DNA of 64,000 nucleotides, from the IMG/VR virus record IMGVR_UViG_3300028887_000066, positions 96,001-160,000 of that record; one strand, written 5' to 3'. The stretch comes from a virus. Taxonomy: Duplodnaviria > Heunggongvirae > Uroviricota > Caudoviricetes. The translations under genes and the position numbers were made by a program. This document shows positions 45,279 through 50,950 of this stretch, one piece after another (within the stretch, counting starts at the first letter, position 1; each line of letters begins with the position of its first letter). The notes beneath the pieces were generated by a model. That model was not told where the DNA came from, searched no databases, and worked only from the letters and a program-made list of their open reading frames with translations.

Positions 45279-45300
45279 ATTGTGGTTTATAAATAATTAT

Positions 45301-45337
45301 TCCCGATAAGCTAGCATTATGCTTATCGGGATTTTTC
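45301..45337. terminator. Intrinsic terminator, possibly bidirectional
   Basis: tcccgataagc...gcttatcggga stem plus T run. Confidence 0.75.
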
Positions 45338-45347
45338 TTTGTAGTAA

Positions 45348-45493
45348 TATAGAAGAAAAGAGTAAAAATCGGGAAGAAGGCTCCACCATTCCTTCTTCCC
45401 TTTTGCAGTCCATTTTTACATCGGTAGCGAAATTCCAATTCTATGTAAACGGTGCAAATATCGTGATGTAATACATCTTCTCTTTTCGCTATA
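45348..45493 (-). ncRNA. Unassigned structured RNA, about 145 nt
   Basis: Closing stem, three internal hairpins, own late promoter motif at 45495-45501. Confidence 0.55.
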
Positions 45494-45539
45494 CATAAAT
45501 ACTTGGGTTATATATTTTCTATAAAAAATTATAGATATT

Positions 45540-45573
45540 TTTGGCTATTCAAATATAAAACCTTATCTTTGCA
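45540..45573 (+). promoter_or_regulatory. Bacteroidetes sigma-A-type promoter upstream of the tRNA leader
   Basis: TTTG...TATCTTTGC; two late-type TATTTAT motifs follow (about 45628 and 45688). Confidence 0.75.
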
Positions 45574-45760
45574 AAGAAAATAAAAAAAAAAATAGTGAAT
45601 TTTTGATCACTTTTCAAATTAATGGTATATTTATTGAGTAAAAACCACATTTTTTAAAAAATGTTTGAAGTTTTGAAAATATTCATATATTTATAATAGA
45701 AATGTGATTTGAAAATAAACCAATAAGGAAATAATAAAGAGAAATACTATTAGAAATAAA

Positions 45761-45886
45761 ATGGCAAACATTATGTATTCACATATTAGTCTCAGTTCAG
45801 CGTATTCTCCATCATTTGTCGATGGAGGCTATATTGACGCGCCGTTTTTTAATAGTAGTGGAGGGAAGACAGAAAATATAGAATAG
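45761..45886 (+). CDS. Putative attenuator leader peptide, 41 aa (MANIMYSHISLSSAYSPSFVDGGYIDAPFFNSSGGKTENIE)
   Basis: Translated by hand; its 3' end is complementary to the terminator 5' arm. Confidence 0.7.
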   Translation: MANIMYSHISLSSAYSPSFVDGGYIDAPFFNSSGGKTENIE

Positions 45887-45959
45887 AAAAATTGATCAAA
45901 CAAAAAGCGTGGAAAAGAATCCACAACCTTTTCAAAAGGTACTATATATATTTCTCCTG

Positions 45960-46000
45960 ACCTCCAAAGATAACAAATCCTTGGGGGTTTTTCTTTTTCT
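45960..46000 (+). terminator. Attenuator terminator directly before tRNA-Phe
   Basis: acctccaaaga-taacaaa-tccttgggggt stem-loop followed by ttttctttttct. Confidence 0.8.
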
Positions 46001-46002
46001 AT

Positions 46003-46075
46003 GGGGGAGAAGCTAACTAAGTAGAAGCGCTGGACTGAAAATCCAGAGGAGTTGGAGCGTTACCAACCTCCCCCA
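46003..46075 (+). tRNA. tRNA-Phe(GAA), atypical T-loop
   Basis: GGGGGAG/CTCCCCC acceptor; ctgga-ctGAAaa-tccag; T-loop AGCGTTA. Confidence 0.85.
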
Positions 46076-46090
46076 CTAAAACTAATTAAA

Positions 46091-46330
46091 ATGGAACTGA
46101 AGAATATTGTTAAAGGAAGTGCAAAACTTCTTTTTATTAAGTCAGGCGGCATTGCTGTGTATCAACTGAATTCTGTTGACGGTAAGAAATATCAACTTGA
46201 AATTGATCTTTCAGACAAGCATGATGTTGGAGAAACTGCTACATTTGAAACAGAATATGAAAAGTCGTTAATCCTTATGCGTTGGATACGGAGATCAATA
46301 GAAAATGAAACATTGTTTGAGATACTTTAG
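46091..46330 (+). CDS. Hypothetical protein
   Basis: 79-aa ORF MELKNIVKG..LMRWIRRSIE. Confidence 0.65.
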   Translation: MELKNIVKGSAKLLFIKSGGIAVYQLNSVDGKKYQLEIDLSDKHDVGETATFETEYEKSLILMRWIRRSIENETLFEIL

Positions 46331-46349
46331 AAAAAAATTAATCCCGTTT

Positions 46350-46382
46350 TTGGCCAATTCAAAAAATAGACGTATATTTGCA
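46350..46382 (+). promoter_or_regulatory. Bacteroidetes-type promoter
   Basis: TTTG...TATATTTGC. Confidence 0.7.
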
Positions 46383-46409
46383 TTGTAATTCAAAAACAGT
46401 CAAAAGAAC

Positions 46410-46613
46410 GACGGGATAGCTCAAACGGTAGAGCGCAATCGACGTTATTCTCCGTGACGATGGAATAAAGAATGACCGAAACATGATTGGGGCTGAGAAA
46501 GCAGCGATCTTATTACGTATAGATACGAAACTGTCGTGTATTCTAGAGCGCACAGCAGATGTAGTTGAAAGAAAATTTGAAAGTTATGGGAGGTTCGAAT
46601 CCTTGCCCCGTTG
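46410..46613 (+). ncRNA. tRNA-like RNA with expanded anticodon loop and variable region (about 205 nt)
   Basis: Acceptor GACGGGA/CCCCGTT; D arm TAGCTCAAACGGTAGAGC; T arm GGTTCGAATCC. Confidence 0.7.
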
Positions 46614-46651
46614 ACAATTTAACAAAATTTAGAATAGAAAGGGAAAATTTT

Positions 46652-46777
46652 ATGATTATCAAATGCCCAAAGTGCCAACAGGATGTTAAAATTGACATCG
46701 CACACGCAGTAGATGAGAATGGTGAGGTGTTTATGTGTCCTCATTGTGGTTATCATTTCAGATATACAGAACGATGA
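46652..46777 (+). CDS. Zinc-ribbon protein
   Basis: CPKC..CPHC. Confidence 0.7.
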   Translation: MIIKCPKCQQDVKIDIAHAVDENGEVFMCPHCGYHFRYTER

Positions 46778-47337
46778 AAGGCAGTTCTAACACAAAACAG
46801 TTCAAGAAATTCCAAATAAGATGGGCTGAAAAGTTAGGATATGAAAATGACCCATATCTTATTAGATGGACATTTATATTCTTTGGCTATTCATTAAGAA
46901 TCCACCATTGGATTAAATCAGATGATAACAGGTTTTTCCACGATCACAGTGCCGATTTACTAAGTATTGTGTTAAAGGGTCGGTATTACAATGTGAAGCC
47001 TATTTATCCTGACAAAAATCCTACCGATATTGTTGAAAAAACGTATTTTGAGGATGGCGACGGCTTTTCATTCGGAGGAGAAGGAAAAAATGAAAAATGG
47101 TGTTATGTAGAGGGTATTTTCAATTCATTGCACAATTTCCTTCATATGAATCGCTCTATATGGTTTTCTAAAGCCGAGGACAGACATTATCTAAGTATAC
47201 CGAAAGAAGGTGCGTGGACATTGATGTTCGAAGGAAAACCAAGACATAAGTGGGGATTTTATGTGAATGGGCATAAGTGGAGACCGTTAAGATATTTCCA
47301 TAAATACGGAATAAAACAGGACAAAAATTATCAATAA
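46774..47337 (+). CDS. Cupin-like protein
   Basis: LRIHHWIKSDD..FHDH..H..AWTLMF.G..KWGFY. Confidence 0.65.
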   Translation: MKGSSNTKQFKKFQIRWAEKLGYENDPYLIRWTFIFFGYSLRIHHWIKSDDNRFFHDHSADLLSIVLKGRYYNVKPIYPDKNPTDIVEKTYFEDGDGFSFGGEGKNEKWCYVEGIFNSLHNFLHMNRSIWFSKAEDRHYLSIPKEGAWTLMFEGKPRHKWGFYVNGHKWRPLRYFHKYGIKQDKNYQ

Positions 47338-47465: not shown

Positions 47466-47543
47466 GCGGGATTGGTGTAGCTGAAGGCGCACGTCAGACT
47501 TCCAATCTGAAGGCATGCACGGGTTTGATCCCCGTATTCCGCT
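47466..47543 (+). tRNA. tRNA-Gly(TCC)
   Basis: tcaga-ctTCCaa-tctga; GCGGGAT/ATTCCGC acceptor. Confidence 0.85.
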
Positions 47544-47646
47544 CAAAGTTTATAATGTGGCATTCTCAAGTACAAGGAACACACCATTCTTTATATGGTT
47601 ATCCGTTTCCCTAGGCGGATTGTAAAATAGCACAGTAGGGGTGAAT

Positions 47647-47720
47647 GCGGGTGTAGCTCAGTTGGTTAGAGCATTACCTTGCCAAGGTAAGGGTCGTGAG
47701 TTCGAACCTCATCACCCGCT
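47647..47720 (+). tRNA. tRNA-Gly(GCC)
   Basis: Canonical cloverleaf, ttacc-ttGCCaa-ggtaa. Confidence 0.95.
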
Positions 47721-47743
47721 CAAAATTAATTGATAATAACAAA

Positions 47744-47817
47744 GGCGGAATAGCTCAGTTTGGTAGAGCGGAGGAGTCATAACCCTCAGGTCACAAGTTC
47801 GAGCCTTGTTTCCGCTA
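47744..47817 (+). tRNA. tRNA-Met(CAT), elongator-like
   Basis: GGCGGAA/TTCCGCT acceptor, CAT anticodon. Confidence 0.85.
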
Positions 47818-47827
47818 CATAAAAAAT

Positions 47828-47944
47828 AATTCTTGATAAGAGGTAAACGGAGGTAACAAGGTCACTACTGAACCGTATTTCAGGGTGTGTGACAAAGGTC
47901 TATGAGGTGTTACGGGAAACTGCATAGGAGTATTATTGAGAATT
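47828..47944 (+). ncRNA. Unassigned structured inter-tRNA RNA
   Basis: 12-bp closing stem aattcttgataa/ttattgagaatt and two internal hairpins. Confidence 0.5.
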
Positions 47945-47949
47945 TTTAT

Positions 47950-48023
47950 GGGCCGATAGCTCAGTTGACTAGAGCATCTGATTTGCACTCAGAAGGTCGC
48001 GGGTTTGAGTCCCGCTCGGTCCA
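47950..48023 (+). tRNA. tRNA-Ala(TGC)
   Basis: G3:U70 pair, TGC anticodon. Confidence 0.93.
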
Positions 48024-48083
48024 CTACGTTGATAATCAATAAATTATAAAGTTTTGTTAAAATAAAAGTTTAACTAATAAAAT

Positions 48084-48311
48084 ATGGGAAAAAGCAGAAA
48101 AGGTGGGCTTCTGTCTCGTAGAAAGAGTGCATTAGCCAGATTGGAGGCACAATACAAGGAATTCAAGAGTGCCAATGAAGATAAGAAGCCTTGGACAACT
48201 ACCCGCAACGGAAAGCCTTATGAGCATGCAGGTAGGAAATACAATGCTGAGTGTGAACGTCTCTCAAAGGAGATTTCAATTCTTAAAGAGAAAATTACAC
48301 GAGGTAAATAA
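48084..48311 (+). CDS. Small basic protein
   Basis: 75-aa K/R-rich ORF inside the tRNA array. Confidence 0.7.
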   Translation: MGKSRKGGLLSRRKSALARLEAQYKEFKSANEDKKPWTTTRNGKPYEHAGRKYNAECERLSKEISILKEKITRGK

Positions 48312-48317
48312 GGAAAA

Positions 48318-48422
48318 AATCAATACCAAGAGTTTTTAGACATGACGGTATCAGATATTGATATGTAGGATAAAACTTATTTCGTCAAAATACATCCAAG
48401 AATTTTAGATTGGTATTTGATT
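48318..48422 (+). ncRNA. Unassigned structured inter-tRNA RNA
   Basis: aatcaatacca/tggtatttgatt closing stem; nested tgacg/cgtca stem. Confidence 0.45.
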
Positions 48423-48426
48423 AAAT

Positions 48427-48510
48427 GGGAGTGCGCCGAAGTTGGAGAGTCGGGGCAGACTGTAAATCTGTTGCCCTTGGGCTGAGTAGGTTCGAATCCT
48501 ACCACTCCCA
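48427..48510 (+). tRNA. tRNA-Tyr(GTA)
   Basis: Long variable arm; gcaga-ctGTAaa-tctgt. Confidence 0.95.
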
Positions 48511-48522
48511 CAAATAAATAAT

Positions 48523-48594
48523 GGTCTATTCGTATAACGGTTATTATACTGGACTGTCTATCCTGGGACGAGGGTTCGACTCCCTCATAGACCG
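48523..48594 (+). tRNA. tRNA-Asp(GTC)
   Basis: GGTCTAT/ATAGACC acceptor, G73, GTC anticodon. Confidence 0.9.
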
Positions 48595-48667
48595 CGTAAC
48601 TAATTGAATGTCAATAAATTACAAAAGTCCCAAACTTTCTCCAAGAGGGATTAATAAATAATTGGAG

Positions 48668-48881
48668 TGGATATAGACGAAACTATCCAATGTAGTTAAG
48701 TATTTCGGTGTCTGGAGCAAGTGGTGACTGCAAACAGAACAACAACGATTGTAAAACTTAGTGAATGGCACAAAAGTTAGACGGGGAGCTGAAGATTGTT
48801 ATTCAGGAAATGCCAAGATTGAAAGCCTAACCGAGGTGGAAGTTTTTATTCAACAGCTCAGAACAAATGAATGGAAAACTT
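48668..48881 (+). ncRNA. Unassigned, probably pseudoknotted RNA
   Basis: Several crossing complementary segments; no ORF. Confidence 0.5.
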
Positions 48882-48898
48882 GACGATATTGGCAATAT

Positions 48899-48971
48899 AT
48901 AGGTGTAGTTCAGTTGGTAGAATGCGGCATTTGGGATGCTGTGGTCGCAGGTTCGAGTCCTGTCACCTATA
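48899..48971 (+). tRNA. tRNA-Pro(TGG)
   Basis: cggca-ttTGGga-tgctg; canonical D and T arms. Confidence 0.9.
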
Positions 48972-48996
48972 CACAAAAACCAAAATACAGGAGTAA

Positions 48997-49069
48997 GCCC
49001 TGTTAGTTCAACCGAATAGAACGTGTGACTACGGATCATAAGATACGGGTTTGAATCCTGTACGGGGTA
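48997..49069 (+). tRNA. tRNA-Arg(ACG)
   Basis: tgtga-ctACGga-tcata. Confidence 0.9.
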
Positions 49070-49075
49070 CAATTT

Positions 49076-49211
49076 TAAGGAATATAGCAACTTACATTGG
49101 CTTATGTCGAAGGGTATTAATACGGCTATGGAGCAGGCTGTAACATTTAGTTTATTCGTGGGCATATACAATGACGAGGCTTCATAAGTATCTAAGTTGT
49201 TCATATCCTTA
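49076..49211 (+). ncRNA. Unassigned rod-like RNA (6S-like architecture)
   Basis: taaggaatatagcaactta/taagttgttcatatcctta and gcttatg/cataagt nested stems. Confidence 0.55.
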
Positions 49212-49215
49212 TTTT

Positions 49216-49303
49216 GGAGGCGTGGCAGAGTGGTTTAATGCAACGGTCTTGAAAACCGTCGGTCGTTAATAGCGGCCCGTAGGTTCGAATCCTACCGCCT
49301 CCG
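49216..49303 (+). tRNA. tRNA-Ser(TGA)
   Basis: Long variable arm, G73. Confidence 0.95.
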
Positions 49304-49349
49304 CGAGAAATAATAATGTTGTTTGTCAGCAATAAAAAAACTAATAAAA

Positions 49350-49883
49350 ATGAAAAATCAGGAATTTAAAATTGATGCCGAAGCAGGTATCGTCGTATTT
49401 TGCCAAAAATCGCATGGTAATGTCTTTATTTCTAAGACAAAAGTAAGTGAAAAGGACAAGTTCAACATCGGTATCGGTCAATTGATTACAATGAAGCGTA
49501 ATGAAATTGAAATCAGGAAAGCCGATATTAAATCAATGCTAACTGTAGCAGACGAATGTAAAGATTTGGCATATATCCACAATGGTAGCACGGCACGAAA
49601 ATTGTACAGCAATTTTGCGCAAATCGCCGCTGAGAAGGTAAGTATGTCTCGTAATCACATCCGTGAGTTGAAACAGGATCTTGAAACCTTGTATAATGGC
49701 ACTTATGAGGTTAAGCCATATGCAGAAATCCTCGAAAGTCATAAAGTTATTCGTAATGGAAGTGAGGAAGACAAGGCAGAGTTGTTCAAGAAACCATATG
49801 CCGTACCAAAGGAAATCGTTGATGGTACACATATGTTTGAAATTGTAGGTGGCACTGTTAAGCTTAAGCCTATTGAAAAGTAA
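49350..49883 (+). CDS. Hypothetical protein
   Basis: 177-aa ORF within the tRNA array. Confidence 0.7.
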   Translation: MKNQEFKIDAEAGIVVFCQKSHGNVFISKTKVSEKDKFNIGIGQLITMKRNEIEIRKADIKSMLTVADECKDLAYIHNGSTARKLYSNFAQIAAEKVSMSRNHIRELKQDLETLYNGTYEVKPYAEILESHKVIRNGSEEDKAELFKKPYAVPKEIVDGTHMFEIVGGTVKLKPIEK

Positions 49884-49911
49884 ATGGGTAGATTTTTCTA
49901 CCCACAAAAAC

Positions 49912-49999
49912 GGAGAGTTGGGGGAGTGGCTTAACCCACCGTCCTGCTAAGACGGCGTACACCAAAAGTGTGCCGATGGTTCGAATCCATCACTCTCCG
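49912..49999 (+). tRNA. tRNA-Ser(GCT)
   Basis: Long variable arm, GCT anticodon. Confidence 0.95.
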
Positions 50000-50015
50000 C
50001 GAAAAATTATTATAT

Positions 50016-50088
50016 GGGACTGTTGGCCGAGAGATCAGGCGCAAGTTTGTGGCACTTGTTTACGTTGGTTTGAGTCCAACACAGCCCC
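50016..50088 (+). tRNA. tRNA-His(GTG)
   Basis: G-1:C73 pair; caagt-ttGTGgc-acttg. Confidence 0.88.
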
Positions 50089-50098
50089 CAAATCTAAC

Positions 50099-50173
50099 AC
50101 TCTCATAACTCAGTTGGTTCAGAGTGCCACTCTTACAAAGTGGAAGTCATAGGTTCAAGTCCTATTGAGAGTA
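50099..50173 (+). tRNA. tRNA-Val(TAC)
   Basis: ccact-ctTACaa-agtgg. Confidence 0.92.
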
Positions 50174-50184
50174 CGAAATTATAT

Positions 50185-50258
50185 TGGGCTGTAGCTCAGT
50201 TGGTCAGAGTATCACACTGATAATGTGAGGGTCGTGGATTCAAGTTCCACCAGCCCAA
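50185..50258 (+). tRNA. tRNA-Ile(GAT)
   Basis: tcaca-ctGATaa-tgtga. Confidence 0.92.
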
Positions 50259-50268
50259 CAATATTGAT

Positions 50269-50350
50269 GGACGTATGGGGGAATTGGTAGACCCGCCTGA
50301 TTCAAAATCAGGTTTCGCAAGAAGTGCAGGTTCGAGTCCTGCTACGTCTA
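50269..50350 (+). tRNA. tRNA-Leu(CAA)
   Basis: Leu-type D loop and variable arm; cctga-ttCAAaa-tcagg. Confidence 0.93.
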
Positions 50351-50358
50351 CTTTTACT

Positions 50359-50440
50359 ACCCCTGTGCTGGAATTGGTAGACAGGTCAGATTAAGGATCT
50401 GATGCCGAAAGGCGTGCGGGTTCGAGTCCCGCCAGGGGTA
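50359..50440 (+). tRNA. tRNA-Leu(AAG)
   Basis: Leu scaffold; tcaga-ttAAGga-tctga. Confidence 0.9.
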
Positions 50441-50452
50441 CTTATATTACTT

Positions 50453-50851
50453 GGGTCTGTTTTGGAATTGATACCAAGAATCGGGCGGTATATAAGCATG
50501 CAGGGTGAGTGGTCATTGCCCTTAAAATCATTGATCAGACAAATTAAATGGTAACTATGAGTATGCTCTCGCTGCTTAATCGAAGTACAGTAGATTAATC
50601 GCTTAATCCTTACACAAGGTGTTCGGACGAGACATCACCCCAAGGTAAATTCACGAAGCCGAGGAAATGGTGGTGCAGTAAATTCGGGAATAGTCACTCA
50701 AAAGCCCTATTTTGGTGATGAAACTTTAAGGGATAAGGGACGAATATGTTGTTCAGGTCGTATTTGTCCACGAATAAATCATTCTGAACTAAGCATGTAG
50801 AAAGTATATGGTTCACTTGAGTAGACGACGGTTCAACCCCGTCCAGATCCA
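50453..50851 (+). ncRNA. ssrA: tmRNA; tag (A)GNYEYALAA
   Basis: GGGTCTG/CAGATCC acceptor with G3:U70; T arm; tag ORF ggt aac tat gag tat gct ctc gct gct taa. Confidence 0.95.
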
Positions 50852-50856
50852 CAAAC

Positions 50857-50928
50857 AGGGGATTAGTTTAGTGGTTAGAATGCATGACTCCAAATCTTGA
50901 GACAACTGTTCGATTCGGTTATCCCCTG
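50857..50928 (+). tRNA. tRNA-Trp(CCA)
   Basis: AGGGGAT/ATCCCCT acceptor, G73, CCA anticodon. Confidence 0.88.
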
Positions 50929-50950
50929 CAATTACTCCACCAAATTTTAA

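Follow-up and report, generated by a model that had tools for sequence, protein, structure and literature searches.

A 41-codon open reading frame upstream of a tRNA-Phe gene lies within a conserved cassette whose predicted RNA structures resemble those of a transcription attenuator. The cassette is located in the window, by which we mean the whole 64,000-nucleotide stretch of DNA analysed here (bases 96001-160000 of an IMG/VR phage record of 356 kb and 36.8% G+C). The explanation that we find best, and to which we assign a probability of roughly 0.45, is that the cassette would act as a ribosome-dependent transcription attenuator in front of tRNA-Phe, with a leader of mixed codons that is not tuned to the tRNA genes beyond it. 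It looks like a leader-peptide attenuator because a long-range helix over the last codons of the ORF competes with the terminator. Large phages carry dozens of tRNA genes. The only published cases of leader-ORF attenuation that we know of concern genes for amino-acid biosynthesis and for synthetases, and a literature search found none of leader-peptide control of tRNA genes. If the explanation is true, the phage would gauge translation speed directly and respond by making tRNA.

All of the cassette components described here lie on the forward strand. The leader ORF (45761-45886) begins with ATG at 45761 and ends with a TAG stop codon at 45884-45886. Codons 16-23 contain a predicted hairpin (45808-45827) whose 8-bp stem is kept in the relatives, with one C-G to A-U double change seen in an alignment read by eye without formal scoring; it forms no pairs with the switch strand, and is possibly a pause or synchronising hairpin. 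Tandem Phe codons (TTT TTT, 45845-45850) are located 9 nt 5' of the switch strand, a purine-rich sequence (45859-45886) that begins with GGAGG, overlaps codons 33-41 and the stop codon, and forms the 5' strand of an antiterminator predicted with ViennaRNA. The GGAGG is invariant in the relatives except for L131, in which it is GGGGG. The antiterminator 3' strand (45942-45966), recognised from both the predicted fold and its conservation, contains two complements of GGAGG, UCUCC and CCUCC, and the 21 nt that span them and end in CCUCCAA are invariant in all relatives. Two small predicted hairpins (45909-45924 and 45926-45940) are enclosed by the long-range helix, and the second of these has one pair altered on both sides among the relatives. 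The CCUCC is also the 5' strand of an intrinsic terminator at 45959-46001. This consists of a hairpin (45959-45989, -13.8 kcal/mol) followed by a U-rich tract, the end of which is 2 nt from the tRNA. Terminator pairing is maintained across nine sequences (97% of cells paired). Counts on the alignment of relatives, in which the first hairpin was misaligned by MAFFT, gave no covariation for either the antiterminator or the terminator helix, because the pairs never vary.

In the proposed mechanism, the purine-rich last 8-9 codons, GGAGG first, would pair over about 100 nt with the pyrimidine strand that includes CCUCC. A ribosome keeping pace to the end of the ORF would strip this helix, such that the terminator forms and transcription stops just short of the tRNA, whereas a ribosome lagging within the first ~30 codons would leave the helix intact and permit read-through into tRNA-Phe and the genes beyond. 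We infer here that the ORF is translated and that ribosome and polymerase are coupled, and any response to tRNA supply would be a further element of the model. In the absence of a long run of one codon several tRNAs would be sensed, their weighting following the composition of the leader family, in which Phe, Ser, Tyr, His and Pro are abundant, and the conserved Pro-Phe-Phe would mark the last stall position that still leaves the switch strand free.

The two structures compete in the predicted ensembles. Before the 3' strand of the terminator has been made, the most stable fold is that in which 45859-45886 is paired with 45942-45966, and in the ViennaRNA ensemble of the window transcript ending at the U tract the antiterminator has a probability of 0.65 and the terminator 0.35. 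Shuffling of the upstream sequence gives a mean terminator probability of 0.98, with 0.7% of the shuffles as low as 0.36. The terminator probability is 0.19-0.45 in three further lineages (L114, L116 and L118), and for the window and these three together shuffled upstream sequence gives 0.96-0.99, with no more than 1.3% of shuffles reaching the observed lows. When the 3' end of the ORF (45846-45899) is blocked in the fold, mimicking a ribosome, the terminator is restored. In two of the six lineages, L121 and L115, the terminator is dominant (P 0.82 and 0.99) and GGAGG pairs with the upstream UCUCC. As a caveat to the attenuator explanation, we note that the order of events during transcription could favour this neutral GGAGG:UCUCC pairing everywhere.

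Relatives of the cassette were found only through a large protein collection and its ENA/Logan contigs, using as an anchor the 79-aa protein encoded by the gene that follows tRNA-Phe (46091-46330, forward strand); IMG/VR yielded no relatives via the upstream 261-aa gene, the leader alignment or an invariant 19-mer. Relatives in general originate from metagenomes of the rumen and gut, some of them on contigs of 300-550 kb. Those with the cassette comprise strain-level copies (L105-L113 and L035), a leader copy that is 85% identical (L104, whose contig stops just past the ORF), and a subclade in which the 79-aa protein is 82-92% identical (L114-L128 and L131-L134), with the cassette present in eight lineages. 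The module in the subclade is ordered as a GTATATTTATT box, an ORF of 38-42 codons, two hairpins, the 21-nt pyrimidine strand, the terminator, tRNA-Phe(GAA), the 79-aa gene and a tRNA array; examples of the leader ORF are L114:2189-2317:+, L115:2201-2317:+ and L131:1020-1142:+. Between the window and its relatives, the switch and terminator share 80-93% nucleotide identity and the 79-aa gene 82%, as compared with about 60-65% for the ORF and only 51% for the tRNA. More distant relatives, about 100 loci in which the 79-aa protein is 56-73% identical, have no leader, and the protein follows varied tRNAs; their tRNA-Phe genes sit directly after ordinary genes, and the module is absent from a relative at 72% identity. 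The module thus does not extend beyond the subclade of 82% identity or more. The 79-aa protein itself matches no Pfam family, and its sole PHROG match is marginal (E=0.003) and is to a family without an assigned function.

The tRNA-Phe gene (46003-46075, forward strand, anticodon GAA) has non-canonical D and T loops, and was missed by ARAGORN at the default threshold while being recovered with relaxed settings and by Rfam (RF00005, 50.2 bits). Its odd loops are shared with a tRNA-Phe of a Pseudomonas Pakpunavirus. The relatives have a tRNA-Phe at the same place that is canonical and, as given above, 51% identical to that of the window; since tRNA-Phe genes of differing types occupy one site, the tRNA gene was exchanged with its Phe identity retained. 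In every lineage it is Phe(GAA) that follows the terminator. This exchange, in which Phe is kept, is to us the most convincing sign that the cassette and tRNA-Phe are functionally connected. A Pro-Phe-Phe motif precedes the switch strand in six of the eight lineages, with Phe-Leu or Phe-Tyr in the other two, and the features that are conserved are the tRNA-Phe link and this Pro-Phe-(Phe/Leu/Tyr) motif just 5' of the switch strand. In the L114-type relatives the tandem Phe codons are just 6 nt from GGAGG, and a ribosome stalled on the second Phe might therefore mask the switch strand.

The phage genome contains three tRNA arrays, which when summed cover all 20 amino acids. The main array (47466-50929, forward strand) has 16 tRNAs and a tmRNA as predicted by ARAGORN at its default threshold, and together with tRNA-Phe constitutes array A, with 17 tRNAs for 14 amino acids. 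The second array (Met, Asn, Thr, Ile, Leu-TAA and Lys tRNAs) and the third (Cys, a CTA-anticodon tRNA, Gln, Arg and Glu) are elsewhere in the genome. Neither is preceded by a leader cassette and each has a promoter directly 5' of its tRNAs; a 12-codon mini-ORF, with a composition unrelated to that of the leader, is all that is found 5' of the second array. The switch element is present in the genome in a single copy.

A 40-nt promoter motif of a Bacteroidota-like type (TTTG / TAnnTTTG), located with an nhmmer profile built from genome copies, is present approximately 69 times in the genome and is co-oriented with the genes. The first copy of this host-type motif (45538-45576, forward strand, E=8.6e-7) is upstream of the leader, and the motif is not seen there in the relatives. 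A second (46349-46386, forward strand, E=1.6e-9) is between the cassette and the main array, a gap that also includes about 1.1 kb of other genes, and the homologous place in the relatives has weak partial matches to the motif. Closer to the leader there is an upstream box (45600-45636, forward strand) that ends in GTATATTTATT (45625-45635), overlaps a sigma-70-like scan match at 45603-45631, and is kept in all lineages, with GTATATTTATT at the same relative place in L104, L114, L115, L118, L121, L131 and L134. This box is likely to be the promoter of the leader transcript. We also considered it as a genome-wide promoter class, for which the count of 12 copies against about 4 expected is indecisive.

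The ORF might instead be a small phage gene of the usual kind, equipped with a promoter and a terminator of its own, in which case tRNA-Phe would be expressed by leaky read-through and the helix would be incidental. We consider this unlikely. The ORF does have a promoter upstream and a strong terminator downstream, and several of its properties are gene-like: it is predicted by gene callers in at least 17 contigs, by codon usage it ranks among the top 4% of small ORFs and scores as real genes do, eight lineages keep the frame open with both indels within it being multiples of three, and the pN/pS ratio is 0.13-0.24 in close pairs. Furthermore, it is retained together with the terminator in two contigs (L035 and L113) from which tRNA-Phe is absent. 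However, the peptide is near-neutral between distant lineages (pN/pS 0.7-1.3), and its C-terminus is altered by slippage in an A run that shifts the stop codon, always to a position within or beyond the switch strand in the relatives. The islands of conservation within the ORF coincide with RNA helices, the non-coding 3' strand is better conserved than the ORF, and the competition with the terminator far exceeds that of shuffled sequence. The product matches no Pfam or PHROGs family, and no homologues were found outside of the subclade.

Substitutions among the strains and L104 are distributed unevenly, with eight synonymous sites and three replacements in the first 35 codons, and none and three, respectively, in the last six, where they are mostly at predicted unpaired positions of the helix. 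The near-neutral divergence between distant lineages, with islands of conservation at RNA helices, is what would be expected of a leader ORF whose peptide is unimportant, and is not proof of translation; a second reading frame in the leader is also fairly open (25-46 stop-free codons). The ORF ends in TAG and the genome encodes a tRNA with a CTA anticodon, and we considered whether TAG is read as sense. Because this gave no clear gain in coding density the standard code was assumed, and read-through of the TAG would lengthen the leader ORF by only three codons.

The original prediction was that the first 35 codons of the leader sample the downstream tRNA set, and its literal description is confirmed in full in the sequence. 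Residues 1-35 are M, A, N, I, Y, S, H, L, P, F, V, D and G only, and among these 13 amino acids Asn alone is without a tRNA in the local array. K, T and E are confined to codons 36-41, where a stall would not give read-through, and their tRNAs are in the second (Thr, Lys) and third (Glu) arrays; K and E are, as was supposed, frequent in the phage proteome (8.7% and 7.3%). The examples of isoacceptors given for the leader codons are correct, and 13 of the 17 array tRNAs have a readable leader codon with strict wobble and 14 with relaxed wobble, those for Arg, Trp and Leu-CAA being without one. The possibility that the Lys, Glu and Thr tRNAs are under the same control elsewhere, which had been named as an argument against the idea, does not apply, because the other two arrays are without a leader.

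The permutation tests that had been proposed yield an excess of array-matched composition with most null models, but one that is moderate and dependent on the null (P 0.0001-0.12), and the cut at codon 35 and the tRNA set were both chosen post hoc, with the data already seen. Residues in the amino-acid set of the array (33 of 35) are in excess relative to 35-codon windows of long ORFs (P=0.001), to the genome's 1047 small ATG ORFs (P=0.015, and P=0.002 at the codon level) and to gene windows matched for A content (P=0.015), whereas a Markov null with the leader's own dinucleotides gives P=0.12 for amino acids and P=0.0016 for codons. Array-readable codons also number 33 of 35 (P=0.0001 against windows of long ORFs), and of the 33 codons that precede GGAGG the array tRNAs can read 31 (P=0.0001 with gene windows as the null); for all 41 codons the amino-acid comparison gives P=0.04. 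The breadth of sampling on which the original prediction depended is no greater than chance, with 13-14 of 17 tRNAs represented against 10.2-11.3 expected (P=0.09 for 35 codons, P=0.19 for 41), and given the peptide the choice of synonymous codons has P=0.16 with relaxed wobble and 0.018 with strict wobble. What these mixed statistics pick up comes down to codons 1-33/35 having no Lys, Glu, Thr, Gln or Cys.

Membership of the array is also confounded with the A content of codons, which is 0.21 for amino acids in the array and 0.51 for those outside it, and enrichment in the leader family correlates negatively with codon A content (Spearman -0.45). The enriched amino acids in the leader family are Phe (3.2-fold), Ser (3.1-fold) and Tyr (2.6-fold), as well as His and Pro, and Glu, Lys, Thr, Gln and Arg are nearly absent. 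With regard to Phe-specific sensing, it is a caveat that the Phe enrichment is modest and is equalled by that of Tyr and Ser. The leader family favours amino acids served by an array tRNA over the rest (Mann-Whitney P=0.045 for the window array, 0.007 for the union of the relatives' arrays). That codons 1-33/35 match the local tRNA set almost perfectly is genuine but, as we read it, largely incidental, because the leader family is A-poor, the array holds tRNAs for A-poor codons, and the array is large. A purine-poor sensing part would also be required by the design of the RNA, as runs of purines would compete for the pyrimidine strand.

That the leader is a tuned multi-input sensor, its codons having been selected to represent the array tRNAs such that a shortage of any of about 14 opens the array, is thus quite unlikely in our view, notwithstanding the readable-codon excess that survives matching for A content, the position of K, T and E, the family-wide enrichment and the conserved attenuator anatomy. 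Co-variation of leader and array among the relatives was the further comparison that had been suggested, and its outcome is negative: relatives with short arrays of 9-10 tRNAs keep the same type of leader. The L124 array encodes Phe, Asp, Arg, Ser, Ala, His, Ile, Leu and Gly tRNAs, and that of L128 Phe, Asp, Pro, Asp, Ser, His, Ile, Leu, Gly and Leu. These arrays are without Tyr and Met, and also without either Pro and Val or Ala and Val, yet the L124 and L128 leaders before the switch strand contain five Tyr plus Cys, Glu/Lys, Asn, Val and Met, and locally readable codons before the switch number just 15/30 and 16/30, respectively (P=0.10 and 0.07). The leaders of other lineages have Lys, Thr or Cys in the sensing part. 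Moreover, the main array has a promoter of its own.

A broader version, in which the leader is a feedback sensor of the decoding capacity of the phage, seems equally improbable. It would hold that the leader, with abundant Phe, Ser, Tyr, His, Pro, Gly and Asp and almost no Lys, Glu, Thr, Gln and Arg, has been selected to mirror the core tRNAs of the array. Transcription of the array would be released when any one of these tRNAs became depleted, for instance through host anticodon nucleases, and the relatives with shrunken arrays would reflect evolutionary lag and not an absence of tuning. More generally, a match between a mini-ORF and a tRNA set can stem from base composition and array size, and should be taken as design only when comparative or experimental data back it.

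What endures of the multi-input idea is the conserved, attenuator-like cassette and the lack of a long run of any single codon in the leader; the tuning to the downstream tRNA set is not borne out. Phe accounts for 3 of the 33 leader codons in the window, with one tandem pair, and for 5 of 30 in the relatives. If the cassette is a ribosome sensor then several tRNAs would be its inputs, because there is no long run of one codon.

An untranslated structured RNA leader switched by a protein, a tRNA or a small RNA, or a stand-alone small RNA ending at the terminator, would account for the strong fold of the cassette (z = -3.7), the invariant pyrimidine strand with its two GGAGG complements, the rather open second frame and the conservation of the ORF islands at synonymous sites too, but is made doubtful by the retention of the ATG with its A-rich start context, of in-frame indels and of stop placement in all lineages, and by the lack of a match to any T-box or other leader model in Rfam on the cassette at E values up to 1. 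No non-tRNA family in Rfam reaches its gathering score between 45200 and 47600, and a sub-threshold match to ylbH (45291-45402, 19.9 bits against a gathering score of 50) is upstream of the cassette.

The attenuator explanation can be compared with well-known leader-peptide attenuators such as those of Escherichia coli trpL, pheL for pheA and pheM for pheST, and the multivalent ilvGMEDA and thr leaders. As in these classical systems, the phage cassette has a short ORF in a 5' leader and an intrinsic terminator just before the putatively regulated gene, and the predicted alternative helix uses the 5' strand of the terminator while its own 5' strand would be covered by a finishing ribosome. The Phe codons shortly before the switch strand and the Phe-related product downstream are reminiscent of the classical Phe leaders, and the mixed codons of the multivalent ilv and thr leaders. 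The cassette differs in preceding a tRNA gene that heads a tRNA array, and not a biosynthetic or synthetase operon, and in having a very weak Phe run, with two tandem Phe codons and 3/33 overall, whereas 7 of the 15 codons of pheL are Phe. It also shows no clear region 1:2 anti-antiterminator, its ORF is long (about 40 codons), and the GGAGG strand has two alternative registers.

There is a published precedent for a multi-input uORF in toiL of the E. coli topAI-yjhQ operon, which Baniulyte and Wade (2025; PMC12121999) describe as a multipurpose regulatory uORF that senses ribosome stalling at differing positions, thereby altering the downstream RNA structure. According to these authors, toiL acts through occlusion of a ribosome binding site and Rho-dependent termination with antibiotics as inputs, whereas the phage cassette has an intrinsic terminator before a tRNA gene.

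The locus provides a compact system of ~250 nt in which attenuation of tRNA genes could be tested, and the relatives supply natural variants: two types of tRNA-Phe behind one switch, leaders with Phe-Phe, Phe-Leu or Phe-Tyr, and contigs without the tRNA. Among the minor differences between lineages, we note that the 5' UTR contains a perfect 18-nt palindrome (45647-45664), identified as a self-BLAST match, that is present only in the window lineage and in L104.

The tRNA-Phe gene that directly follows the leader and terminator (46003-46075, + strand) is of an unusual form, in which the D loop is without the usual GG and the T loop is without TTC. Both odd loops are shared, nearly base for base, with a tRNA-Phe of a Pseudomonas Pakpunavirus (L129:55-130), and this likeness at the sequence level suggests a distinct type of tRNA-Phe that is borne by unrelated phages.

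An association with tRNA genes is seen for the adjacent gene coding for a 79-aa protein (46091-46330, + strand), for which Pfam has no family. Among the homologues, which comprise this gene and some 100 related loci (L002-L103), the start very often lies 20-110 nt 3' of a tRNA gene of widely differing identity (Leu-AAG, Ser, Ile, Asn, Val, Ala, Glu, Gln, Met, Asp and a TCA-anticodon tRNA). This suggests that the gene either travels with tRNA genes or inserts beside them. Two metagenome contigs of near-identical strains (L035 and L113) keep the leader and the terminator with the tRNA-Phe deleted. The deletions differ, corresponding to window positions 46019-46168 in L035 and 46006-46276 in L113, and each also cuts away some or most of the 79-aa gene; they may be real variants or else assembly artefacts. 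In another relative (L128), two IS605-type OrfB/TnpB genes (L128:6635-7960 and L128:12743-13915) lie on either side of the tRNA array region, an arrangement that fits the rearranged array content among the relatives.

The 40-nt host-type promoter motif is present in about 69 copies in the whole genome, with those in the window at 45538, 46349, 59602, 60875 and 62771. The copy upstream of the leader (45538) is the first of this series, and the spacing is dense from 155 to 193 kb on the + strand and from 195 to 338 kb on the - strand. A tRNA-shaped element (46409-46615, + strand) lies 25 nt 3' of the 46349 copy, with 97-98% conservation among strain variants. It has an acceptor stem, a D arm and a T arm (GGTTCGAATCC), with insertions of about 113-130 nt; an ARAGORN call needs both the intron option and a low threshold, and an Rfam search gives no match to the element. 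Further downstream, after the cassette and before the array, a 187-aa ORF (46774-47334, + strand) has a hit to a PHROG with the annotation cysteine dioxygenase (E=1e-22), and a 41-aa zinc-ribbon ORF stands 5' of it.

Among unusual tRNAs outside the window, we note a tRNA with anticodon CTA (G000:C1:253584-253656 in whole-genome coordinates) that would read TAG. Genome-wide TAG recoding is not evident, since treating TAG as sense does not clearly raise coding density (81% versus 84% coverage). A candidate circularly permuted or split tRNA gene lies in the second tRNA array (G000:C1:194660-194790, - strand): the T arm and 3' acceptor end (ending CCA) come first, joined by a short linker to the 5' acceptor and D arm.
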